In this document: positions 2,577-52,571 of the stretch, piece after piece
Layout of the letters: each line of letters starts with the position of its first letter
Numbering within the stretch: the first letter of the stretch is position 1
Source: Candidatus Zixiibacteriota bacterium
GTDB lineage: Bacteria; Zixibacteria; MSB-5A5; JAABVY01; JAHJOQ01
DNA length: 64,000 nucleotides
Assembly: GCA_018820315.1 (NCBI GenBank)
Contig: JAHJOQ010000073.1
Span: 81,281-145,280 of the forward strand
Reading direction: 5' to 3'
The notes under the pieces: model-generated
What the model was told of the DNA's origin: nothing
What the model saw: only the letters and a program-made list of their open reading frames with translations
Databases searched by the model: none
Made by a program: the position numbers and the translations under genes

Positions 2577-3755
2577 ATGAGCATATTCGTTGATGGAAAG
2601 ACTAAGATCGTTGTGCAGGGAATAACCGGTCGTGACGGTTCATTCCATGCGAAACAGATGAAGGAATACGGTTCAAAGGTCGTCGCCGGTGTAACGCCGG
2701 GCAAGGGCGGCCAGAATCTCGACGGCATTCCGATTTTTAATACGGTTGAGGATGCGGTGAGAGCGACCGGCGCCAACACTTCGGTGATTTACGTTCCGGT
2801 GGCGTTTGCAATCGATGCAATCTATGAAGCAGCAGATGCTGGCGCGAAGCTAATCGTCTGCATTACCGAGGGTGTTCCGGCGAATGACATGCTGAATGTC
2901 TACAATTATCTGAAGGACAAAGACTGCCGCCTTATCGGCCCGAATTGCCCCGGAATCATCAGCCCCGGCAAGACGAAAGTCGGCATCATGCCTGGTCACA
3001 TCAGCAAGCCTGGCAAGGTCGGAGTCGTATCACGCTCCGGCACGTTGACATATGAAGTCGTATACAATCTCACGCTCGCCGGGCTCGGTCAGTCGACCTG
3101 TATCGGAATTGGCGGCGATCAGATCATCGGGACGAATTTTATTGATTGTCTGGAAGCATTCCAGGCTGATCCGGCGACTGAAGCGATTGTCATGATCGGT
3201 GAGATAGGCGGCTCTGACGAAGAGGAGGCCGCTGCATACATCAAGAAGAACGTAACAAAGCCGGTCGTCTCGTTCATTGCGGGTCAGACTGCGCCTCCGG
3301 GGAAGCGCATGGGACATGCAGGCGCGATAATTTCCGGCGGTACCGGTACTGCTGCGGACAAGGTAAAGGCGTTGAATGCAGCCGGTATTCCAGTTGCTGA
3401 AACTCCGGCACAGGTCGCTACAGTCATGGCAGAGCTGATCGCAAAGTCCAAAGCGGCAAGAAAGAAGACTGCTAAGCCGGCAAAGAAGAAAGCAGCGAAG
3501 AAAACAGTCAAGAAGGTCGTGAAGAAAGTAGCTAAGAAGGCGGCTAAGAAGACTGTCAAAAAGGTTGCGAAAAAGAAGGCTGCAAAGAAGGCCCCCAAGG
3601 CTACAAAGAAAGTAGTCAAGAAGGTCTCAAAGAAGGCAGCGACCAAGAAGAAGTCTGTGAAGAAAGCTATCAAGAAAACTGCAAAGAAGATAACAAAGAA
3701 AACGTCCAAGAAGACGACCGCGCGCTCTCGTAAGACATCGGGCAAGCGCAAATAG
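2577..3755 (+). CDS. sucD: Succinyl-CoA synthetase alpha subunit with a ~103 aa C-terminal Lys/Ala-rich histone-H1-like extension
   Basis: The core (~289 aa) has the CoA-binding and citrate-lyase-like motifs ([18 protein letters not shown]). The tail is [18 protein letters not shown]... to the stop codon. The likely start is ATG at 2577 (MSIFVDGK), downstream of the track start at 2550. Confidence 0.9.
3444..3755 (+). repeat. Low-complexity imperfect tandem AAG/AAA-GCN-rich coding repeat encoding the SucD K/A-rich tail
   Basis: Visible DNA periodicity (aagaaggtcgtgaagaaagtagctaagaaggcggctaagaag...). The antisense ORFs on this stretch (Phe-rich) are artefacts of the repeat. Confidence 0.8.
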
Positions 3756-3773
3756 GCCGCCGGGAGTTTGCAA

Positions 3774-4055
3774 ATGACAGATAAACCGGAAAAAGCAGAA
3801 GAAAAGCCTCCAGAGAAGGTACAGACGGAGGCTGCGCCGGCCAAGAAGGGTAAAGGTGCTGGATCCGACGACCCTCTGACCATCTTCTACCACTGGTGTA
3901 AGGCGTGCAATATTTGCATAGCCTTTTGTCCTCAGAAGGTCTTCGAACCGGATCGAGATGGTAAGCCACAGATTGTACGTCCTCGGGATTGCTCCCAGTG
4001 TGCATTCTGTTGGCTGCACTGTCCTGACTTGGCGATAATTTCCAACGAGAAGTAG
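3774..4055 (+). CDS. korD: 2-oxoglutarate:ferredoxin oxidoreductase delta subunit (dicluster 4Fe-4S ferredoxin)
   Basis: Two CxxCxxCxxxCP motifs (CKACNICIAFCP; CSQCAFCWLHCP). Lies directly upstream of korA. Short K/E/P-rich N-terminus. Confidence 0.8.
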   Translation: MTDKPEKAEEKPPEKVQTEAAPAKKGKGAGSDDPLTIFYHWCKACNICIAFCPQKVFEPDRDGKPQIVRPRDCSQCAFCWLHCPDLAIISNEK

Positions 4056-4066
4056 AGGAGCGGCAA

Positions 4067-5224
4067 ATGAAGAGAGAAGTAAAACTGCTGCAAGGTAACG
4101 AAGCCTGTGTCGAAGGCGCTATCATGGCCGGCGTCCGCTTCTTCGGTGGATATCCCATCACACCCTCTACGGAAATCGCTGAGGGAATGGCGCGAAGACT
4201 GCCGCTGATCGGGGGACGTTTCGTCCAGATGGAGGATGAGATTGCCTCGATGGCATCGATTATAGGCGCATCATGTGCGGGTGTCAAGTCAATGACGGCG
4301 ACGTCGGGACCTGGCTTCTCGCTGATGCAGGAGAACCTGGGCTACGCATACATAACCGAGACGCCTACCGTGATCGTTGACGTTCAGCGGGGTGGCCCTT
4401 CGACAGGCCTCCCGACTAAAGTGTCTCAGGCAGATACGATGCAGGCCGGATTCGGGACTCACGGCGACTATTATGCGATTGCGCTGGCTCCGTCGAGCGT
4501 GGAAGAGATTCTGTATGCGACGATAGAGGCTGTGAATCTGTCTGAGACGTACAGAACGCCTGTGATCCTGCTGCTTGATGAAGTGCTCGCGCATATGCGA
4601 GAGAAGGTAGAGATTCCATTTCCTGACGAGATTCAGGTAGTGAAGCGTAAACGCCCTACGGTACCGCCGGATTGGTACAAACATTTTGCAATCTCGGCGA
4701 CCGGGGTTTCGGCGATGGCGAAGTTCGGTGATGGCTATCGCTTTAATATAACCGGGCTGACACACGATGAACTCGGATTTCCGACCGCGGTTCCTTCCGA
4801 AATCGCAGCCATGCTCGACAAGCTCAAACAGAAGATTGTCAAGAATGCTGAATTGACATGCCAGTTTGAGTACACCGAGATGGATGATGATCCAAATGTG
4901 GCTATATTCTCCTACGGGATCGTCGCTCGTGCAGCCAAGCAGGCCGTCATGATGGCCCGCGACCACAGGCTGAAAGTCGGTGCGATTCGACCCAAGGCAA
5001 TCTGGCCGTTGGCAGCAAACACCCTGCGAAAGCGGCTGAAAAAGGTTAGAAAACTGATCGTAGCTGAACTGAACCAGGGACAACTTATCAATCAGATCAA
5101 ACATCATGTGGACAGGCGGCACACCGAAATCATACCTCTTCAGAGATATGACGGTGAACTGATAACGCCCGCCCAGATTCTTCAAAAAGTCAAGGAGGTA
5201 AAGCATCATGGAACAGAAATCTGA
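4067..5224 (+). CDS. korA: 2-oxoacid:ferredoxin oxidoreductase alpha subunit
   Basis: The N-terminus (LLQGNEACVEGAIMAGVRFFGGYPITPSTEI) is typical of KorA/PorA. Confidence 0.9.
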   Translation: MKREVKLLQGNEACVEGAIMAGVRFFGGYPITPSTEIAEGMARRLPLIGGRFVQMEDEIASMASIIGASCAGVKSMTATSGPGFSLMQENLGYAYITETPTVIVDVQRGGPSTGLPTKVSQADTMQAGFGTHGDYYAIALAPSSVEEILYATIEAVNLSETYRTPVILLLDEVLAHMREKVEIPFPDEIQVVKRKRPTVPPDWYKHFAISATGVSAMAKFGDGYRFNITGLTHDELGFPTAVPSEIAAMLDKLKQKIVKNAELTCQFEYTEMDDDPNVAIFSYGIVARAAKQAVMMARDHRLKVGAIRPKAIWPLAANTLRKRLKKVRKLIVAELNQGQLINQIKHHVDRRHTEIIPLQRYDGELITPAQILQKVKEVKHHGTEI

Positions 5225-6047
5225 TGTAATTCATCGTTACCTCCGGCCGAAGAAGAAATTTCCGCATGTGTGGTGTTCCGGCTGCGGACTTGGAGTGATC
5301 CTCGGATCGCTGATTCGTTCGATCGACGCTCTGGAAATACCGAAAGACAATATTACAGTCTGTTCGGGCATTGGATGTTCGTCGCGTCTGCCGGTGTACG
5401 TCGATTTCAACACTCTGCACACCACGCACGGGCGTGCGATTGCTTTTGCAACGGGCGTGAAAGTCGCTAACGACCGTCTCAAAGTGATCGTAGTGACTGG
5501 TGACGGTGACTGCCTTGCAATTGGCGGCAACCACTTCATCCATGCCTGCCGCAGGAATATTGATATAACGGTGATTCTTGCGAATAACTGGATATACGGC
5601 ATGACAGGCGGTCAGTATTCGCCGACGACACCGACGACCAAGTTTGGCTCTACTGCGCCATATGGGAACCTCGAGCAACCATTCGATCCGGCCAAACTGG
5701 CGATTGCGTCGGGCGCTGCCTACGTTGCGCGCACGACGGTATATCACGTCGATCAGATGGACAAGATGATTAAAGGTGCCCTTGCTAAGAAGGGCTTCTC
5801 TGTCGTTGAGGTGATCTCGAACTGTCATACCTACTTCGGGCGCCTGAACCGCGCAGGTGATGCTGTCCAGATGCTCGACTGGATGAAGAAGCATGCCATG
5901 CCGATCCAGGCCGCGAGGAAGCTTCCTCCGGAGAAGATGGAAGGCAAGTTCGTGACGGGTCTCCTTCACGATGAAGAGAAGGATGAGTATTGCGAGAAGT
6001 ACGCTCGTCTGGTCGATGAACTTATGAACAAGTCTGGAGCGAGGTAG
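5208..6047 (+). CDS. korB: 2-oxoacid:ferredoxin oxidoreductase beta subunit (TPP-binding)
   Basis: CSGCG...GDGD TPP-binding motif (VVTGDGDCLAIGGNHFIHA). Overlaps the korA stop. Confidence 0.9.
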   Translation: MEQKSDVIHRYLRPKKKFPHVWCSGCGLGVILGSLIRSIDALEIPKDNITVCSGIGCSSRLPVYVDFNTLHTTHGRAIAFATGVKVANDRLKVIVVTGDGDCLAIGGNHFIHACRRNIDITVILANNWIYGMTGGQYSPTTPTTKFGSTAPYGNLEQPFDPAKLAIASGAAYVARTTVYHVDQMDKMIKGALAKKGFSVVEVISNCHTYFGRLNRAGDAVQMLDWMKKHAMPIQAARKLPPEKMEGKFVTGLLHDEEKDEYCEKYARLVDELMNKSGAR

Positions 6048-6051
6048 TACG

Positions 6052-6624
6052 ATGCCGGATAAAACCAAACATGCCGTCGGTTCCGACCGATTTGAGATAC
6101 GCCTTTCCGGCTCAGGTGGTCAGGGTCTGATCCTTGCCGGAGTCATTCTGGCTGAGGCTATAGGGACAATCGACGGGAAGAATGTCACACAAACGCAGTC
6201 CTATGGACCTGAAGCTCGTGGCGGAGCGTCGAGAGCCGACGTCGTTGTATCGAAAGATGAGATTTATTATCCTAAGACGATGAAGCTCGACTTGCTTCTT
6301 GCGCTGACTCAGGAGGCGTGTGACACGTATTTCCATGATCTGAAGGATGGCGGAATTTTCATGATTGATTCTCATATGGTGACACAGCCACCTACTCCCA
6401 ATTGCTATGGATTCCCGTTTGTGCAGCTTGCGAAAAGCGAGATCGGCGTTGCTATGGTAGCCAACGTAATTTCGCTCGGTGCAATATGCGAGCTGACAGG
6501 AATCGTTTCGAAGCACGCGTTGACGGAAATAGTAAAGAAACGTGCCCCGAGAGGAACCGAGGAGAAGAACCTCAAGGCTCTCGAGCTCGGATTCAAGATT
6601 GCGCGCGAATACAAGAACGCGTAA
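6052..6624 (+). CDS. korC: 2-oxoacid:ferredoxin oxidoreductase gamma subunit
   Basis: SGSGGQGLILAGVILAEA motif of the POR/KOR gamma family, ~190 aa. Confidence 0.88.
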   Translation: MPDKTKHAVGSDRFEIRLSGSGGQGLILAGVILAEAIGTIDGKNVTQTQSYGPEARGGASRADVVVSKDEIYYPKTMKLDLLLALTQEACDTYFHDLKDGGIFMIDSHMVTQPPTPNCYGFPFVQLAKSEIGVAMVANVISLGAICELTGIVSKHALTEIVKKRAPRGTEEKNLKALELGFKIAREYKNA

Positions 6625-6734
6625 GAAGCTGGAGCGATGGAGAAGAAGCTGCTGATAATCAAGCCTGATTTGACCGAGACTGCAAAGGCTGAGATATCGT
6701 TTTTCTTTGGAGATTTCTGAGACGGAATCAACGG

Positions 6735-7985
6735 ATGATGACAATTAGAATTCCATATGGCGACGACAAGCTGGAGATCACCGTGCCGGATGAACACTTT
6801 GGCGGATTGATCGAACAGAAGCGTCAGGTAGCTGCGAGGAACGTGTCATCTCTCATCAAGGATTCGCTCGCTGCTGATCGACTTGGAGAGTTTCTCGGAG
6901 ATTCGACCAGAGTTCTTGTTGTTGTGAATGACTCCTATCGGTGGACGCCATCGCATCTTGTGCTCGCGGAGCTGAGTCAATACTTGAGAAAGATTTCAGA
7001 CGTGCGATTAATCGTGGCAACCGGCCTGCACAGAAAGCCTACTGATTCCGAAATCGACAGGATTCTGGGAGATGGGTGCGATATTTCCCGGTCCGGGATC
7101 GCATACTCAGATGCGTACGACGCAGATCAATTCGACTGCATCGGCAAGTGGAGGAGCGGCAAAGATGTTCTTGTGCACAAGCTGTTCGGCTGGGCTGAGA
7201 AGGTGATTGTGATCAGCTCCGTGGAACCGCACTACTTTGCTGGTTTCTCAGGCGGCCCGAAGTCTTTTGTACCCGGACTCGCGCACAAGAGTACTATTGA
7301 AGCGAATCACTCTCTCGCTGTCAGCAGTGACTGCCAGCCTTGCATTCTCGAGGGCAACCCTTTTGCAGAGTCGCTCAGGGAGGCTGTCGATCTGCTCGAT
7401 TTGTCGAGAGTCTACGCGATTCAGCTCGTCTTGAACACGCACGAGGATGTTGTTGGCGTGTTCACCGGCGATCTGTGGAGCAGTTTCGGCCGGGCGGTCG
7501 ATTGCGCGAGATCGGTATTCGTCGAGAAAGTCGATCGTCAGTATCCGGTTGTAGTTGCAGTCAATTCGCCTCCGCTTGACAGGAATCTCTATCAGATGCA
7601 GAAAGTGTATGAGAATACGAAAGGTTTGGTGATGGATGGAGGTTCGATCATTGTCGTCTCGAAATGCCAGGAAGGCGTCGGCAATGATGAGTTCCTGAAT
7701 CTCGCCGCCAAGTATCCTGAGCCTCAGGATGTTCTTAACGCCAAGGTCGAGGGATGGAGTCTCGGTTTCCACAAGCTGTACAGAACTGCGTTGGCGAAGA
7801 AAAGAATCAGCATATTTGCCAAGACTGATGTCGATCCGGAAATTGTCCGACGTGTGTATCTCGATCCGATCGATGATCTGCAGTCGAAGATCAATGAAGA
7901 ATTAGAGAAGTTTGGAAAAGAGTCAAAGGTAATGTTTATATTGGATGCAGGCCATGTCGTTCCACACGTGGATCGGGCCGCATAG
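6735..7985 (+). CDS. LarA-family (nickel-pincer nucleotide-dependent) 2-hydroxyacid racemase/epimerase homolog
   Basis: N-terminal DUF2088-like region (IPYGDDKLEITVPDE...LVVVNDSYRWTP), GLHRKPT motif and HYFAGFSGGPKSFVPGLAHKSTIEANH. These match the LarA cofactor-anchoring Lys/His region (HYFAGFSGGRKS in L. plantarum LarA), recalled from memory. Confidence 0.65.
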   Translation: MMTIRIPYGDDKLEITVPDEHFGGLIEQKRQVAARNVSSLIKDSLAADRLGEFLGDSTRVLVVVNDSYRWTPSHLVLAELSQYLRKISDVRLIVATGLHRKPTDSEIDRILGDGCDISRSGIAYSDAYDADQFDCIGKWRSGKDVLVHKLFGWAEKVIVISSVEPHYFAGFSGGPKSFVPGLAHKSTIEANHSLAVSSDCQPCILEGNPFAESLREAVDLLDLSRVYAIQLVLNTHEDVVGVFTGDLWSSFGRAVDCARSVFVEKVDRQYPVVVAVNSPPLDRNLYQMQKVYENTKGLVMDGGSIIVVSKCQEGVGNDEFLNLAAKYPEPQDVLNAKVEGWSLGFHKLYRTALAKKRISIFAKTDVDPEIVRRVYLDPIDDLQSKINEELEKFGKESKVMFILDAGHVVPHVDRAA

Positions 7986-41206: not shown

Positions 41207-41230
41207 CCGTCAGGAATCCTTTCCTGACGG
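41207..41230. repeat. REP palindrome copy 1 (CCGTCAGGAA-tcct-TTCCTGACGG)
   Basis: Perfect 10 bp inverted arms around a 4 nt loop. Overlaps the 3' end of the RAYT gene. Confidence 0.85.
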
Positions 41231-41797
41231 AATCCCACCGTAACCAATGCACGTCCATTCACTGTCAACGGGAATCAATATGTCCTCCCTGCCACCATAT
41301 GCTGACGCGCTCGAGTACCGCCACTGCCACGGTTCCTCAACCAGACCCTTACGAACAGGGTTGTTATGAATGTACTCAATCTTCTGTCGCAAGATATCCT
41401 CAGATGAGATCACCAGACTATCGAACCGTGGCTTCCATAGAGCCGATCCCTTCCCCGATTCGCGCGCTGTGGCGCGCCGAGCGCGGCAGATAGTCTCCTG
41501 TATGTCTGGCCCCGCGTCCAGCCGCCCGATTTGTCTTGCTGTGTAGCGTTTGAGGTTGCCGACTATTTCAGAGATTGTCTTGTCCTCTGCCCGTTTGACG
41601 ATCATGTGGAAGTGATTCGCCATCAGAACCCATGCCAACAGAGTGAAATCACCTCGCCTCTGACAGAAGCGAAGACAGTCGACGAAGATGGCACATGTCT
41701 GCTTGTTATTGAATACGTTGATGAATCCCGCCACTGTGGATGTTACGAAGTGCACTTTTCCGTGGACATCGAAAAGTGCACGGTCGCGGCTTCTCAA
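41210..41797 (-). mobile_element. REP-associated tyrosine transposase (RAYT; IS200/IS605 TnpA-like Y1 HUH transposase)
   Basis: HUH motif (MANHFHMIV), a conserved downstream Tyr region (WQ..FD...I...KIEYIHNNPVRKGLVEEPWQWRYSS), ~190 aa, flanked by REP hairpins. Confidence 0.85.
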
Positions 41798-41861: not shown

Positions 41862-41885
41862 CCGTCAGGAATCCCTTCCTGACGG
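41862..41885. repeat. REP palindrome copy 3 (CCGTCAGGAA-tccc-TTCCTGACGG)
   Basis: Perfect copy that overlaps the 3' end of the HEPN-like ORF. Confidence 0.85.
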
Positions 41886-42470
41886 CTCCGGGGAATCAGT
41901 CATTTGTGAAGAGCTATCGTCCCGAGTCCCGCTTTGCAGTTCTTTAGTACTTTGGAGAGGTTCCATGACCCATCCAACGGCTCGGTGTACATACGTGGAT
42001 TCAAGAGCAGGCGGCGGTGGTTTGATGTTTTTCATTGAGTATCCCCAGTCGCTCACGAGATTGTGCGCTGCGGCGAGATCATTGGCGGCCTCTCGTAGCG
42101 TGGAGATTCGTGCGGATAGTCTCAAATCGTCATTACTGGGAAAGTACCACAGAAGAGCTGCATCGTGAGCAATATAGTTCCGGGCAAGTCTCGCCATGTC
42201 GAGCAGTGACAGATTGCCTTCCGTTGTTCCGTGCACATTGCCATACTTCTTCACGGCGTTGGCAAGCCGGTTCTCCATCGTCTTCTCCGCTATATTCTGC
42301 CAAGTGTCAAGGTCTTGTTCTTTGCCTTCTCTGACGCCTTTGACAAAGTCAAAAAGGCAAAGGACATCCTTGCATGTATACTCAAAATGCTGACTCAGCA
42401 CCAACGCTCGGCCCACTGCTGCAAGGTAGTTCAGCTCACAACTGCTCGCTTTGCTGAAATCAATCCACAT
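41865..42470 (-). CDS. Hypothetical protein with a HEPN-type RNxxxH motif (candidate HEPN RNase / Abi-like cargo)
   Basis: The RNYIAH segment (RNxxxH; HEPN consensus is R-x4-6-H, often RN-x3-H) lies in a predicted helical context (LLDMARLARNYIAHDAALLWYF), 201 aa. The ORF is bounded by inverted REP copies 3 and 4. No recognisable partner gene. Confidence 0.4.
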   Translation of the reverse strand: MWIDFSKASSCELNYLAAVGRALVLSQHFEYTCKDVLCLFDFVKGVREGKEQDLDTWQNIAEKTMENRLANAVKKYGNVHGTTEGNLSLLDMARLARNYIAHDAALLWYFPSNDDLRLSARISTLREAANDLAAAHNLVSDWGYSMKNIKPPPPALESTYVHRAVGWVMEPLQSTKELQSGTRDDSSSQMTDSPEPSGRDS

Positions 42471-45765: not shown

Positions 45766-46542
45766 ATGTCAAGCTTTTATGAACTCGTTGATATCATGAA
45801 GAAACTGCGGGGACCTGAGGGCTGCCCATGGGATATAGAGCAGACCCATAAGTCATTGATTCCCTATTTATTAGAGGAGACGTACGAGGTTATCGAGCGG
45901 ATTGAAGAGGCTGACCCGGTGAAGCTGAAGGATGAGCTGGGGGATCTTCTGCTGCAGATCGTGTTTCATGCTCAGATCGCGTCCGATGTGGGCGAATTCG
46001 ACATAGAGGATATCTCGAAGGCTATATCTGATAAGCTTGTACGGCGGCATCCACATGTTTTCGAGAAGAAGGCTGATCTCACGCCTGATCAGGTAACGGT
46101 CAACTGGGAGCATATAAAGCTCGAAAAAGACGAGCCTCGCGACGGCGAGCGGAACTCGGTGTTGTCTGGTGTGCCGAAGAGCCTTCCGGCGCTACTGCGG
46201 GCGTATAGGGTGCAGGAGAAGGCGGCGCGGTTCGGGTTTGATTGGGAGAAGATCGAGGATATAATAGTCAAGCTCGACGAAGAGACCGTTGAATTGAAGT
46301 CTGAACTTGCAGATAAGAATGAATCCGGCATTATCGAGGAACTGGGCGATCTGCTCTTCACCGTCGTAAATATCGCGCGGTTCCTGAAGATCGACCCCGA
46401 ACGCGCATTGAATCGCATCACGAATAAGTTCAAGACACGGTTCGAATATATCGAGACCCGCCTCGCTGAATCGGATCGCACTGTCGCAGACGCCACCCTT
46501 GCGGAAATGGACAAACTCTGGGACGAGTCGAAGAGGAGGTAG
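45766..46542 (+). CDS. mazG: Nucleoside triphosphate pyrophosphohydrolase MazG
   Basis: GCPWDIEQTHKSL...EETYEV...ELGDLL are MazG motifs, duplicated in the N- and C-terminal halves. Confidence 0.88.
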   Translation: MSSFYELVDIMKKLRGPEGCPWDIEQTHKSLIPYLLEETYEVIERIEEADPVKLKDELGDLLLQIVFHAQIASDVGEFDIEDISKAISDKLVRRHPHVFEKKADLTPDQVTVNWEHIKLEKDEPRDGERNSVLSGVPKSLPALLRAYRVQEKAARFGFDWEKIEDIIVKLDEETVELKSELADKNESGIIEELGDLLFTVVNIARFLKIDPERALNRITNKFKTRFEYIETRLAESDRTVADATLAEMDKLWDESKRR

Positions 46543-46567: not shown

Positions 46568-47773
46568 ATGCGATCTCTGGTCGCCCGGCAATTGCCAATG
46601 GTGAAGGAGGGCAGGGTGAATAGCAGAGAAAGCTACCAACAGGTCATTGAGGATATCTTCGGGGCTGGCGTGAGCACTTTTGATTGCAGCAAGGACATTC
46701 GAAACAATGTGACCGGTGCCATCAATAATGAAAACTACCGGCCATTCACGAGAAACTTTGTCGCCAGACTGGAGAGACTTAGAACGACTTACGAAGGCCA
46801 TGTCTCGTTCGGCGACCTCCTCAGACAAGTCAATATTGTAGCTGAAAGTGGTCTTTGGCGTGGTGCAGTAGCCGAGTTGGCTGCCTACGACTTCTTAAGT
46901 TGGAAGATACTCGAAGGGGATCGGATACTGTCTGAACCTGCCGAGTTGAATGTAGATCTGAGAAAGGAGCAGACATATGCGGCGGAACTCGGTAAGAAGT
47001 TCGCAAATGTTGACGGTTGTTTTAGGGGAATTGACGTTTACTTCGACGTCAAATGTCTCGGTGACGCTGCTTCGGCGTTGCTTAGAAGTGCAATCAAGGA
47101 GATCGTTAGCGAACTCGATATTCCAGGTTTGTGGATAGTCCCGGAATTCGCGAAGGACTTGGATTACGAGCTGATTCAAGACAATTGGTGTGCCCTCAAG
47201 CACGAATTAATTCGGGCTGCACGACACAACCAAGTAGTGAATCAAGTGAAATCAAATGTCGTGAAAGGGCTTGGTTTCAGTCTGAAGCGCGGACCCGGAG
47301 TAATGGCAACCGAAAGCAGCCACAATCCGTACCGTCATGCAGAAGTCTATTGGTCTAGAGTTTTCGGGCATTGTGACAAGTTTGTGAAAAACAGCCCGTT
47401 TATGCTTGTGTACGTCGTATTCCCATGGTTTAACAACACTCTCAGGCCGCATGGGGGCGAAAGTCTGACATTTTATCGGGCGTTAACTAGACGGGTTTTC
47501 TGTCAATGGATCGGTCATAAGACGCGTTTAGATACCGTACTTGATGACTTTCATAGTGATTGTACTATATGCGAAGTATCGCAGAGCCTTTCTGGGATAC
47601 TCTTCTTAGAGGACAATGTCATACAGGGTGAGAATCCTGATCATCACAATTTGATCGCGCACATGTATCTTAATCCTAATGCTGAACACAGCTTGAAACG
47701 GACGCTATTCTTTGATTTTGCGCTGACTTCTGGTCTTGATACGTTTGATGACTTTGAGCATGATAATTACTGA
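46568..47773 (+). CDS. Hypothetical protein (no recognised family); possible PD-(D/E)xK nuclease-like N-terminal half
   Basis: ~390-401 aa ORF with a GGAGG RBS before a GTG at ~46617. GC and codon usage are visibly lower than the neighbours. The E...D-x12-DVK pattern (AELGKKFANVDGCFRGIDVYFDVKC) is compatible with a restriction-endonuclease fold. Confidence 0.45.
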   Translation: MRSLVARQLPMVKEGRVNSRESYQQVIEDIFGAGVSTFDCSKDIRNNVTGAINNENYRPFTRNFVARLERLRTTYEGHVSFGDLLRQVNIVAESGLWRGAVAELAAYDFLSWKILEGDRILSEPAELNVDLRKEQTYAAELGKKFANVDGCFRGIDVYFDVKCLGDAASALLRSAIKEIVSELDIPGLWIVPEFAKDLDYELIQDNWCALKHELIRAARHNQVVNQVKSNVVKGLGFSLKRGPGVMATESSHNPYRHAEVYWSRVFGHCDKFVKNSPFMLVYVVFPWFNNTLRPHGGESLTFYRALTRRVFCQWIGHKTRLDTVLDDFHSDCTICEVSQSLSGILFLEDNVIQGENPDHHNLIAHMYLNPNAEHSLKRTLFFDFALTSGLDTFDDFEHDNY

Positions 47774-47797
47774 CAGCACGAGGACGTACACCAACCA

Positions 47798-47832
47798 CAA
47801 ATCGTGTTCTGTTGGTGCGCGGGGATATACAC
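47798..47832. terminator. Hairpin between the convergent genes (possible bidirectional terminator)
   Basis: CACCAACcacaaatcgtgttctGTTGGTG; ACACCAACCA is also present as a direct repeat. Confidence 0.3.
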
Positions 47833-47849
47833 CAACCAATATTCTATGA

Positions 47850-48146
47850 CTAAATCTCACCTGCCAGTTCGACAATGCGCTTGTACGGAATCGCGATCCA
47901 GCTCTCTGCCGAAAATGCGCCGTTGGCCATGCTGATCATCGAGACTTTGGCAGCTGTCTCCTCATCGGGAGCTTCATAGATGTCACAGAAATCATAAGAA
48001 CCGAGCAGGGCGTAGTGAGCGAGAAATTTCACCTCGGGACATTTTTCCCTGACCTGTTCCAGCCAGCTCTTGCCGATTGTTTCGCGGTCCTTTATCTTCG
48101 CTGCGACCTCTGGCGACAGTTTCGTCATCAGCATAAATGTCTTCAT
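47850..48146 (-). CDS. GYD-domain protein
   Basis: ~98 aa with the GxYD motif (LLGSYDF) and a strong RBS (GGAGGTG). Confidence 0.7.
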   Translation of the reverse strand: MKTFMLMTKLSPEVAAKIKDRETIGKSWLEQVREKCPEVKFLAHYALLGSYDFCDIYEAPDEETAAKVSMISMANGAFSAESWIAIPYKRIVELAGEI

Positions 48147-51218: not shown

Positions 51219-51736
51219 TATTTTCGCGCGCCTTCAGCCTATGTGCTCGGCTCGGCGAATCATTACTCGCCATATAGCCGAAAACGAACAGACTGAATAT
51301 AAGACTTTCGCACGGCGTGGGCAAGTGTCGGTTGCCTCAAGGTCTCGAAAAGATGGCTTTCACTCCCAGTTTCAGTCTGTCGCTGGAGCATTTTATCTTC
51401 TGCGCATGCCAGCGCAATCATATATGGTTGTACGGTTGCACTTTTTGTGAATCTGATTTGTCTTCGAAATCAGGCGATTTCGCCTTTCTGCGCCCGACAG
51501 CTCGATCTTCCATCACACAAATCCATGCGACCCCGTCAGTGTTTCGTAAGTGCTTGTCGCACTGTAAGTTCTTTCGGCACGTGTCAGTGACTGGATTCTG
51601 GCTGAAATGTGTTTAGGTTCGAGAAATTTCCTGCAAATCGGTTCATTAATTGCTGACTTCATAGCTAAGTATTGGGATTGATGCTGAAGAATACATATTA
51701 ATAGTATATTCGAGTATTATCAGAAGGAGAGAGCAC

Positions 51737-52378
51737 ATGAAATTTATCTTGCTCACACTGGCTATTGTTAGCCTTCTCGCTTCGTCGGCGTTCGGCTTCA
51801 CAGGTTGGCTTTCGACGCCATCAGGAGTGACTGGCACAGGAATCTGGGCTGACAACTTCAAGATATCCTGGGATGTCACTCAGCAGGGCAATGACTGGTA
51901 TTACGAGTACTGGTTGACACAGACCAATAATGAGCCTCTGGTTGTAGGTGCTGTCAGTCACTGGCTGCTGGAAGTCTCACCCCGTACTGATACGGGAACA
52001 GACTTCTGGGGATTTAGTGGTGGAACAGAGGTGCAGGACAACTGGCAGACAGCGGCTGGGTTCACATTTGTCGGACGTGCTCTCAAGCTCGACTATGGTG
52101 CGACGCATTACTCATTCTATTCCAACCGCGCCCCGGTGTGGGGTGACTTCTTCGCGAAGGATGGCACCGCCGGAAACGACCAGGGGATCTTCAATTATGC
52201 CTGGAATACCGGTTTCTTTGATCCGGACCCGATGGATGCTCCATCCGATGGTTCGATCGGATATAAGATTCTGCGGCCGGATACGTATACTGAGGTTATC
52301 CCGGAACCGACCACTCTCGGACTTCTCGGATTGGGACTACTTGGTCTGGGCACCCGGTTACGCAAGAAATCCATGTAA
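51737..52378 (+). CDS. PEP-CTERM sorting-domain secreted protein
   Basis: Signal peptide. The C-terminus VIPEPTTLGLLGLGLLGLGTRLRKKSM has a PEP motif, a hydrophobic helix and a basic cluster. Preceded by a ~500 bp AT-rich non-coding leader. Confidence 0.8.
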   Translation: MKFILLTLAIVSLLASSAFGFTGWLSTPSGVTGTGIWADNFKISWDVTQQGNDWYYEYWLTQTNNEPLVVGAVSHWLLEVSPRTDTGTDFWGFSGGTEVQDNWQTAAGFTFVGRALKLDYGATHYSFYSNRAPVWGDFFAKDGTAGNDQGIFNYAWNTGFFDPDPMDAPSDGSIGYKILRPDTYTEVIPEPTTLGLLGLGLLGLGTRLRKKSM

Positions 52379-52465: not shown

Positions 52466-52496
52466 AGAAGACCCTCGTTAGAGGGTCTGATATTTT
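52466..52496. terminator. Bidirectional intrinsic terminator between the PEP-CTERM gene and tRNA-Ala
   Basis: AGACCCTCgttaGAGGGTCT followed by gatatttt on the plus strand; the reverse complement reads as a hairpin followed by ucuuaguu. Confidence 0.6.
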
Positions 52497-52571
52497 GGTG
52501 GAGCAGAGCGGGCTCGAACCGCCGACCTGTACGTTGCGAACGTACCGCTCTCCCAGCTGAGCTACTGCCCC
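52496..52571 (-). tRNA. tRNA-Ala (anticodon CGC), CCA encoded
   Basis: GGGGCAGUAGCUCAGCUGGGAGAGC...anticodon loop UUCGCAA...GGUUCGAGCC...CUGCUCCACCA, with the G3:U70 alanine identity pair and a canonical cloverleaf. Confidence 0.9.

Follow-up and report, generated by a model that had tools for sequence, protein, structure and literature searches.

The window is the whole stretch of DNA that was analyzed, 64,000 nucleotides in length. It contains an uninterrupted open reading frame (ORF) of 401 aa at positions 46568 to 47773 of the plus strand. As the original prediction had it, this ORF lies between mazG, which ends at 46542 on the same strand, and a convergent GYD-domain gene. The mazG gene (45766 to 46542, plus strand; Pfam MazG) is a conserved core gene for a nucleoside triphosphate pyrophosphohydrolase. 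The GYD-domain gene occupies 47850 to 48146 on the minus strand (Pfam GYD, E = 1.5e-21). The recR, ybaB, and dnaX genes lie beyond it, and valS is also in the neighborhood. None of these neighbors in the window is a methyltransferase gene, a part of an R-M system, or a recognizable defense gene. No flanking inverted repeats or terminal repeats, target-site duplication, or integrase were found around the target gene. The nearest tRNA is not close to it, at a distance of about 4.7 kb.

The maximal ORF starts at ATG 46568. The true start is most likely GTG 46616, which gives a probable coding sequence of 385 aa plus the stop codon (46616 to 47773, plus strand). This start is preferred because of its ribosome-binding site, the start positions of homologues, and the NCBI gene model. 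A Shine-Dalgarno sequence read from the DNA (AAGGAGG, 46604 to 46610, plus strand) lies 5 nt upstream of the GTG. The aligned position is the start of 99 of the 121 homologues, and the NCBI model (P0001) is a 385-aa protein that is 100% identical to the target. The 401-aa length first assigned thus describes an ORF that exists but probably not the protein. Residue numbers below follow the 401-aa ORF.

The mazG-GYD slot

Among all 59 window ORFs, the target has the lowest GC content, 0.469 (z = -2.6). At third codon positions (GC3) it has 0.504, and the window averages 0.576 (z = -1.7). It uses TTA for 5 of 40 leucines and AGA for 10 of 27 arginines, and its neighbors carry 0 to 2 TTA codons. 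The lower GC and the frequent TTA and AGA codons noted at the outset are therefore present, but the overall synonymous-codon likelihood falls within the range of the window (z = -0.5, rank 19 of 59 ORFs). Because that likelihood is unremarkable, we call the compositional anomaly real but modest, with codon usage only mildly atypical.

Related Zixibacteria whose MazG proteins are 72 to 79% identical keep the order valS-mazG-[slot]-GYD, with other genes in the slot. It is filled by Peptidase_C14 plus an 87-aa ORF, or by DUF2807, and the GYD gene is 86 to 91% identical in these relatives (L131 to L133). In a sister strain with 96.8% nucleotide identity, the target orthologue is truncated at codon 181. 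The divergence begins after that codon, between 47110 and 47111, and continues with a stop codon and unrelated sequence. Two contigs share this truncation junction (L129, GCA_043823925.1; L130, SRR26275509). The intact arrangement is identical on contigs from two sources, an NCBI metagenome-assembled genome and an SRA run. The comparison of this junction on the mazG side among relatives, which had been set beforehand, thus found other genes or a truncated copy and no conserved synteny of the target, although its flanks are kept. The target is an accessory, horizontally mobile gene in a variable mazG-GYD slot.

The slot between mazG and GYD and a second exchange slot between ftsZ and L28 contain no obvious integrases.

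An undescribed family with a putative PD-(D/E)xK core

An exhaustive search retrieved 298 representative clusters at an E value of 1e-3 or below. The members are mostly stand-alone proteins of 375 to 400 aa, with a typical length of about 380 aa. One variant, P0064, has an N-terminal XRE-type HTH fusion. Homologues are only 34 to 40% identical, and their genomic backgrounds are unrelated; examples are a locus with SprB/CHU_C-type genes (L002) and a megaplasmid of Cupriavidus. The family is previously undescribed and is widely but patchily distributed in bacteria. The target had been described as an orphan with no recognizable family. It does lack a curated family, but with 298 clusters of relatives it is not an orphan.

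Neither Pfam nor NCBIfam gave a match to the target, and when all 122 aligned members were scanned, the families reported included neither DUF4263 nor any other Pfam match. The only PADLOC-DB v2.0.0 match of the target, a 50-residue alignment to Cas8b (E = 0.062), is noise. PDB sequences, searched with the target and with the 122-member profile, also gave only noise, with E values of at least 0.2. A formyltransferase (E = 0.21) and a designed repeat protein from the profile search were rejected on this basis. Weak matches to Csm6-CARF (2/122 members, E = 0.06) and to DM_Arn (2/122) were likewise judged to be noise. The target had no match in PHROGs, where a single member of the 122 matched (E = 1.6e-4). 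No family match was found in 2.9 million IMG/VR viral contigs or in 50,697 phage records. A set of 72,556 plasmids contained one fragmentary match of 240 aa, on Cupriavidus necator N-1 pBB1. A phage origin of the family is unsupported by the viral contigs, phage records, and PHROGs.

Conservation was counted in an alignment of 122 diverse members with 20 to 40% identity. The PD-(D/E)xK motif places an aspartate on one strand and (D/E)-x-K on the strand after it; the helix before these strands usually adds another acidic residue. The family has E103 (121/122), D149 (122/122), D/E160 (120/122), and K162 (121/122). The original prediction had reported an E...D-x12-DVK arrangement. The D...DVK part is present, but D149 and D160 are separated by 10 residues (D-x10-DxK) rather than 12, and E140 in AELGKK is found in only 40/122 members. 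The conserved glutamate is E103 in AVAELAAYD. Its conservation throughout the family shows that the D...DVK motif is no chance occurrence. The alignment of 122 members shows the conserved catalytic motif expected of the PD-(D/E)xK superfamily.

The AlphaFold model of the target is confident (pLDDT 94.7, pTM 0.93). It begins with an all-helical region (residues 17 to 95; 46616 to 46852, plus strand) with helices at 19-31, 47-52, 55-75, and 81-90. The conserved positions of this region are N46, F60, F64, and R67-L68-x-R70-L71. The putative catalytic core follows at residues 96 to 195 (46853 to 47152, plus strand), assigned by the order of modeled secondary structure and by conservation. Its first helix (97-115) carries E103 (codon 46874 to 46876) and D108. 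It is followed by a strand at 126-132, a strand at 145-152 carrying D149 (47012 to 47014), and a strand at 157-163 carrying D160 (47045 to 47047) and K162 (47051 to 47053), all on the plus strand. A helix at 167-183 and a strand at 188-193 complete the segment. This alpha-beta-beta-beta-alpha-beta order is that of the PD-(D/E)xK core, and all four conserved residues lie on the canonical elements. The AlphaFold check for such a core, which had also been set beforehand, therefore found the expected order of elements together with near-invariant putative catalytic residues. The central segment is a putative PD-(D/E)xK (restriction-endonuclease-like) core.

A helical linker with small strands (residues 196 to 252; 47153 to 47323, plus strand) is the least conserved part of the model, with a mean conservation of 0.31 and no position above 0.8. 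The C-terminal alpha/beta region (residues 253 to 401; 47324 to 47770, plus strand), delimited by conservation and the model, is the most conserved part. It contains 16 positions above 0.8, compared with 7 in the core. Its motifs are P286-W287, Y303-R304-x3-R308-R309-x-F311, F346-x-E348-D349, N369 in N-P-N, and D399-N400-Y401, the last three residues. N369 is invariant, on a par with D149, and the helix at 298-311 is rich in arginine. An origin of this region by duplication of the nuclease half was rejected (hhalign probability 0.6%). The region may bind substrate, act as a sensor, or complete the active site.

Foldseek searches with the whole model covered the PDB twice, with two independent models and a library that ran to April 2026, and the BFVD viral library once. 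They gave no significant match, with best E values of 0.42 (PDB) and 0.2 (BFVD). The top PDB matches were SphA and other PLP enzymes, which were rejected as noise (rmsd about 23 Å). PD-(D/E)xK proteins recur among the weak matches in both PDB searches and in the BFVD search. The sub-threshold PDB matches include the Lassa L endonuclease (5j1p/5izh), RecE (3h4r), a YqaJ-like protein (3k93), MGME1 (5zyv), SPARDA (9qcc), and DUF4297 (8zir). They are not significant because their E values are 1.9 to 5 and their TM-scores are at or below 0.2. The likeness to them is a local 3Di similarity over about 120 to 180 columns, presumably the core, whereas the overall architecture and the flanking domains differ. 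In the BFVD top 50, about 15 of the 29 named matches are exonuclease, DUF559, ExoVIII-PDDEXK, restriction endonuclease, or Cas4-like proteins. No recognizable nucleotide-binding fold recurs among the sub-threshold structural matches. Taken over sequence, profile, and structure searches, the target has no significant match to an established PD-(D/E)xK protein or a known defense protein.

Genomic contexts of the family

Family loci were searched for with an 11-sequence alignment, and 32 non-redundant loci were tallied. About 17 of these have Pfam-supported defense neighbors, in a small sample in which such neighbors were classified by the author from Pfam names within about 4 kb. Type I R-M operons hold or adjoin members in four loci (L006, L104, L110, and L128). 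In L006 the family gene lies between hsdS and hsdR; in L104 it comes immediately after hsdM-hsdS, and the two genes overlap at the end of hsdS. It adjoins a DISARM-like drmABC set (L004), Eco57I/MmeI-type IIG enzymes (L101 and L123), and SIR2-HerA (L103 and L114). Further neighbors are AbiE (L002 and L091), TIR (L007 and L108), HEPN (L007), a 2,150-aa NACHT protein (L097), AAA_21 (L120), and GmrSD and nSTAND3+S8 (L006 and L128). As a control, non-self homologues of those defense proteins were found at 9/32 family loci and at 0/80 housekeeping loci (Fisher P = 5e-6). Five of the 80 control loci match through a generic AAA domain alone; when they are counted, the P value is 0.003. The family is significantly associated with defense genes, above background. 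About half of the loci have no recognizable defense neighbor, and some of them are in polysaccharide or housekeeping contexts.

No partner gene recurs across the family loci, including a 356-aa ORF upstream of the gene in L002 and L003 and small downstream ORFs. No methyltransferase family recurs beside the family genes, and the methyltransferases near homologues are parts of complete systems, of type I or type IIG. A functional link to mazG was considered and rejected: 80 mazG loci from other phyla (relatives at 55% or less) had no family member, recR, or GYD gene nearby.

Proposed function and alternatives

The motif is conserved, defense genes are frequent neighbors, and the slot is variable; the target therefore most likely encodes an immune nuclease that stands alone and belongs to a new family. 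We hold it somewhat probable that the family has a PD-(D/E)xK core and acts as a single-gene immune nuclease, and we infer its nuclease activity, substrate, defense role, and regulation. The earlier suggestion of a solitary PD-(D/E)xK nuclease or defense-like gene acquired horizontally is supported by the model, the conserved tetrad, the defense association, and the variability of the slot. E103, D149, and D160 would bind a divalent metal, and K162 would activate a water molecule that cleaves a phosphodiester bond of nucleic acid. The N-terminal helices and the conserved C-terminal region may supply substrate recognition, oligomerization, or gating. Such gating would direct the nuclease to invading (phage or plasmid) nucleic acid or allow it to act only upon infection. 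The system would consist of a single gene, with no methyltransferase or other fixed partner. A bolder version is doubtful. In it, the protein would be a new single-protein anti-phage immune nuclease whose overall fold lacks structural neighbors in the PDB and among predicted viral proteins, and the C-terminal region would be a new kind of module, sensory or autoinhibitory, through which a minimal PD-(D/E)xK core is gated. It is equally tentative that the key features of this module would be the arginine-rich helix, D349, the invariant N369, and the invariant C-terminal D-N-Y.

The same core could serve a non-immune nuclease, such as an addiction toxin, a processing or recombination nuclease of integrative elements, or a DNA repair or recombination enzyme. 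It would then occur in variable regions simply because such regions collect accessory genes. This is unlikely, though it draws on several observations: a TrwC relaxase in L007, Prim-Pol, DNA_pol_A, and HTH genes in L128, a DDE transposase in L002, the HTH fusion of P0064, and the roughly half of loci that lack defense neighbors. The recurring neighbors are nevertheless defense genes and not conjugation or integration genes, and no antitoxin-like or recombinase partner recurs. The window gene is flanked by no terminal repeats, tRNA site, or integrase, and the near absence of the family from viral, phage, PHROG, and plasmid data also speaks against a role of this kind. The endonuclease of a classical type II R-M pair, with its methyltransferase elsewhere or lost, is highly improbable. 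In size and in its lack of annotation the target suits such an enzyme, since type II restriction enzymes are as a rule PD-(D/E)xK proteins of 250 to 400 aa that defy annotation, and several homologues lie near methyltransferase genes. Those methyltransferases, however, sit in complete type I or IIG systems that have their own nuclease, and none recurs or is found in the window neighborhood. If unprotected, such an endonuclease would be lethal, which fits poorly with a solitary gene that is so widespread.

Two other readings set the nuclease aside. If the E/D/D/K residues were not a nuclease site, the C-terminal region could be the functional center, as a nucleotide-binding or hydrolase module or as a sensor. 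The excess of conserved positions in this region, the invariance of N369, the location of conserved residues where predicted strands end C-terminally, a placement shared with Rossmann-like ligand sites, and the lack of a significant structural match for the nuclease fold would all agree with this. We still think it rather less probable than a non-immune nuclease, since the E...D...(D/E)xK residues lie on exactly the expected elements and are 98 to 100% conserved. Many nucleases, and no recurring nucleotide-binding fold, were found among the sub-threshold structural matches, and no profile match to a nucleotide-binding family was obtained beyond the CARF noise. We give almost no credence to an ordinary, lineage-conserved Zixibacteria gene with no special history. 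The differently filled slot between conserved flanks, the truncated sister copy, the distant homologues in unrelated backgrounds, and the lowest GC in the window all contradict it, and what agrees with it is the identical arrangement on contigs from two sources and the unremarkable codon likelihood.

An immune nuclease that works alone would have precedents. PD-(D/E)xK proteins account for 13 of 154 DefenseFinder systems, and 8 of those 13 are single-gene systems (PMC13099982). Shedu (SduA/DUF4263), Upx (PDB 9WUF), and other solitary PD-(D/E)xK systems resemble the target family in having one gene, no fixed partner, and a place in defense islands. They also share the acidic/acidic/lysine motif, placed on an alpha-beta-beta-beta-alpha-beta core that is putative in the target family, and have further domains with a presumed role in sensing or gating. 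They differ from the target family in that no sequence, profile, or significant structural similarity connects them. No DUF4263 was found in the 122 members, and the target has no PADLOC Shedu match. In Upx, a protein of 1,272 aa, the C-terminal domain holds the core. The 385-aa target carries its putative core centrally, and DNY closes its distinctive conserved C-terminal region. END nucleases, which are endonucleases of a type IIS-like kind, lack a methyltransferase (PMC12191111). Size and architecture rule out identity with either Upx or the END nucleases. Type IV restriction enzymes and END nucleases share with the family the absence of a cognate methyltransferase, a cleavage module (putative in the family) combined with other domains, and a location in defense islands. 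With no fixed partner, the family would be functionally closest to solitary defense nucleases or type IV-like restriction enzymes. Scans of the target and the 122 members gave no match to a modified-base reader (SRA, EVE/ASCH, winged helix, or inactive EndoIII) or to an Mrr_cat-type domain, and modification-dependent cleavage by the family is pure speculation. PrrC in the EcoprrI locus is an accessory defense gene embedded in a type I R-M operon. The family gene occupies a like position, inside or beside such an operon, in only about 4 to 5 of the 32 loci, and PrrC itself is an ATPase-anticodon nuclease with no similarity to the family.

In the Zixibacteria, an uncultured phylum, accessory and defense-type genes are exchanged at short gaps between core genes, namely mazG-GYD and ftsZ-L28. 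The family is one of many candidate defense families, and its importance is moderate. It escapes Pfam, NCBIfam, and PADLOC and has no significant structural neighbor despite a very confident model. If the proposed function is correct, a compact (385 aa), partner-free nuclease family would be added to the bacterial immune repertoire. Its conserved C-terminal module may reveal how a solitary nuclease stays harmless until infection.

Gene, start and family

The target gene is a 401-aa open reading frame at 46568..47773 (+). Directly upstream is mazG, which ends at 46542, and a GYD-domain gene at 47850..48146 (-) converges on the target, as the original prediction had described. Beyond the GYD gene are recR, ybaB and dnaX; valS and L28 lie on the opposite side. 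Translation probably begins at GTG 46616, which is preceded at 5 nt by a perfect AAGGAGG and aligns with the starts of 99/121 homologues. Residue numbers follow the maximal ORF (401 aa), as in the original prediction. The window comes from a Zixibacteria metagenome-assembled genome, in which an identical 385-aa protein is labelled hypothetical.

The spacer from the target stop to the GYD stop is 76 nt. An imperfect 22-nt direct repeat is found at 47776-47838, with copies GCACGAGGACGTACACCAACCA and GCGCGGGGATATACACCAACCA 41 nt apart. Its core, ACACCAACCA, has no other occurrence in the window. The spacer has no counterpart in three Zixibacteria relatives that contain the mazG-GYD slot (L131-L133).

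The protein had no match in Pfam, NCBIfam or the PDB sequences and only a noise match in PADLOC. The family profile found nothing among PDB sequences, and 122 homologues scanned one by one had no Pfam family in common. The gene had been called an orphan without a recognisable family. That is correct for curated libraries, but homologues exist. A word-index search returned 11 homologue clusters at 34-40% identity, and an exhaustive search of 1.84 billion representatives returned 298 at E<=1e-3 (88 at E<=1e-30). Almost all members from the exhaustive search are stand-alone proteins of 375-400 aa. Rare variants include P0064 (441 aa), with an N-terminal XRE-type HTH fusion, and P0079 (939 aa), with a 560-aa N-terminal extension that has no Pfam match; P0079 and P0170 span 939-942 aa. 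The C-terminal motifs of P0079 are degenerate (RR is replaced by EE, and the terminal DNY register is absent).

Viral contigs and phage records contain no family member, a PHROGs search was negative, and plasmids nearly lack the family. The sole match from a cultured organism is a 240-aa fragment on Cupriavidus necator pBB1. In this region (strain N-1, 3126-7666) the remnant is divergent from an adjoining 1129-aa protein, which by reading of its sequence appears to carry a zinc ribbon, an adenylate/guanylate cyclase domain and a STAND ATPase/TPR region.

Putative catalytic core and C-terminal region

Conservation was counted in alignment columns of 122 full-length members with 20-40% identity to the query. 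D149 is conserved in 122/122, E103 and K162 each in 121/122, and D108 in 113/122; position 160 is D in 108 members and E in 12. A chance motif is ruled out because conservation is this high despite such divergence. The original prediction was an E...D-x12-DVK arrangement. Its D...DVK part is correct, since these columns are near-invariant, but the spacing is x10, and its glutamate, E140, is conserved in only 40/122. The conserved glutamate is E103, on the preceding helix.

A model from 11 sequences was moderate (pLDDT 80.6), and one from 122 sequences was excellent (pLDDT 94.7, pTM 0.93). The predicted core contains a helix (residues 97-115, with E103 and D108), three strands (126-132; 145-152, with D149; 157-163, with D160 and K162), a second helix (167-183) and a fourth strand (188-193). 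An alpha-beta-beta-beta-alpha-beta order defines the PD-(D/E)xK core. The predicted order is the same, with the motif residues on the expected elements, in agreement with the fold first proposed. The core is preceded by an all-helical region (17-95) and followed by an alpha/beta region (253-401).

No Foldseek match was significant: the best E-value was 0.42 for the PDB (to April 2026), searched with each of two independent models, and 0.2 for BFVD. Recognisable nucleases came up repeatedly below threshold in the two PDB searches (Lassa L endonuclease, RecE, YqaJ-like 3k93, MGME1, SPARDA and DUF4297). Nucleases made up about 15 of the 29 named matches in the sub-threshold BFVD top 50 (exonucleases, DUF559, ExoVIII-PDDEXK, restriction endonucleases and Cas4-like proteins). 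The model is consistent with a PD-(D/E)xK core inside an otherwise unmatched architecture, short of formal confirmation.

Conservation is strongest in the C-terminal region, where it exceeds 0.8 at 16 positions, versus 7 in the core. Its motifs are P286-W287, Y303-R304-x3-R308-R309-x-F311, F346-x-E/D348-D349 and the invariant N369 within N-P-N. The final three residues are D-N-Y in ~100/122 members. Possible roles for this region are completion of the active site, substrate or ligand binding, or regulation of the putative nuclease. Its origin as a diverged duplicate of the nuclease half was rejected (hhalign probability 0.6%).

Variable slots and composition

Other Zixibacteria encode proteins with 72-97% identity to the MazG beside the target. 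Their contigs retain ftsA-ftsZ-(L28)-valS-mazG-[slot]-GYD, and the slot content varies. The slot of L131 (6733-7902) contains an 87-aa ORF and a caspase-like Peptidase_C14; those of L132 (6854-7816) and L133 contain a DUF2807 protein. This content suggests that accessory genes have landed in the slot repeatedly. The target is also present in the closest strain (96.8% nucleotide identity), but the match runs only to codon 181. The breakpoint corresponds to window position 47110; unrelated sequence containing a stop follows, and the contigs run for only another 24-85 nt. The junction is the same in two independent assemblies. The target is thus dispensable and sits in a variable slot; conservation of the target in synteny across the lineage, which would have counted against the original reading, was not seen in these relatives. 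Features that might explain the insertion (inverted repeats, target duplications, an integrase or a nearby tRNA) were looked for around the target and not found.

Atypical composition, as originally claimed, was found in part. The target has the lowest GC of 59 window ORFs (0.469, z=-2.6), a GC3 of 0.504 versus a mean of 0.576 (z=-1.7) that falls to 0.40 in the last quarter, and more TTA and AGA than its neighbours, but its synonymous-codon likelihood under the window's own usage is ordinary (z=-0.5). This anomaly, though real, is modest, and composition alone cannot prove horizontal transfer.

Another variable slot is located between ftsZ and L28 (41210-42470, -). It contains an IS200-type Y1 transposase (41210-41797) and a 201-aa ORF (41865-42470) that could not be annotated, whose R-N-Y-I-A-H (Rx4H) pattern recalls HEPN RNases. 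The sister strain (L129) has an OLD-family AAA_15/AAA_21/TOPRIM nuclease (664 aa) and a 213-aa ORF in this slot; in L132 the slot is empty. Elsewhere, a 213-aa PEP-CTERM (exosortase-sorted) protein is encoded at 51737-52378 (+), followed by tRNA-Ala(CGC) at 52496-52571 (-). GC is low (0.44-0.47) at ~51250-52000, just before the PEP-CTERM gene.

Defence surroundings and proposed role

Family loci comprised 38 metagenomic loci and 6 from contig look-ups. No recurring partner family was found among the neighbours, so the family behaves as a single-gene unit. The recurring Pfam families among 138 neighbours (within ~4 kb) are almost all defence-related: Methylase_S, HSDR_N, ResIII, SWI2_SNF2, Eco57I/TaqI_C, HerA, SIR2_2, AbiEii, TIR_2 and AAA-ATPase_like/PDDEXK_9. 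The family gene lies between hsdS/GmrSD and nSTAND3-AAA/S8/hsdR (L006), after hsdM-hsdS (L104), directly upstream of a DISARM-like helicase/DUF1998/PLD trio (L004) or beside SIR2-HerA (L103, L114). Other neighbours are type IIG Eco57I/MmeI enzymes (L101, L123), AbiE (L002, L091), TIR proteins (L007, also with HEPN and TrwC; L108), a 2150-aa NACHT protein (L097), AAA_21 (L120), and a reverse-transcriptase-like giant protein with nSTAND3+S8 (L128). The nSTAND3/AAA ATPase and Peptidase_S8 pair, near members at two unrelated loci (L006, 8302-11767; L128, 14828-17146), may be a candidate defence pair by itself.

By our own tally, defence neighbours occur at ~17/32 non-redundant loci; the rest have unknown, housekeeping or polysaccharide-synthesis surroundings. 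As a control, 25 neighbouring defence proteins were searched against other loci. Non-self homologues were found in 9/32 family loci. Among 80 housekeeping loci centred on mazG, with 2.6 times as much DNA, 5 gave matches, all through a generic AAA domain only (Fisher p 0.003 with these five, 5e-6 without). A link between mazG and the family was rejected: 80 mazG loci taken from other phyla had no member nearby.

The best-supported reading, which we judge slightly more likely than not, is that the target encodes a PD-(D/E)xK-type nuclease, solitary and horizontally mobile, that acts as a single-gene defence effector. The family, its motif conservation and element order, the missing partner, the defence association and the accessory status were observed, in line with the solitary, defence-like gene first proposed; nuclease activity and the defence role are what we infer. 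A nuclease with a non-immune role, in a mobile element or in repair, is possible at clearly lower probability, given loci with other surroundings on one side and the defence enrichment on the other. Somewhat less probable still is a non-nuclease with its functional centre in the C-terminal region, which is the most conserved part; the near-invariant motif speaks against this. An orphan type II restriction enzyme is improbable. An ordinary lineage gene is very improbable; the target's codon likelihood is ordinary, but its slot varies among relatives.

As a defence nuclease, the protein would use E103, D149, D160 and K162 for metal-dependent cleavage of a presumed substrate, and the flanking regions would exert control. 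Lacking a methyltransferase, it would need to spare the cell's own DNA, either by recognising a foreign feature (type IV-like) or by becoming active on infection only (Shedu- or Abi-like).

In DefenseFinder, PD-(D/E)xK domains occur in 13/154 systems, 8 of them single-gene (PMC13099982). Single-gene PD-(D/E)xK defence is an established kind, and this family itself is undescribed. It differs from Upx (1272 aa; PDB 9WUF) and from END nucleases, which are set apart by an inactive EndoIII fusion (PMC12191111). It matches neither the DUF4263 of Shedu nor Mrr-type proteins. In the predicted model it has its own three-part architecture with no significant structural neighbour. Candidate defence families are numerous, and the importance of this one is moderate. 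Its appeal is that it is compact, with clear mutational targets and a very conserved C-terminal module.
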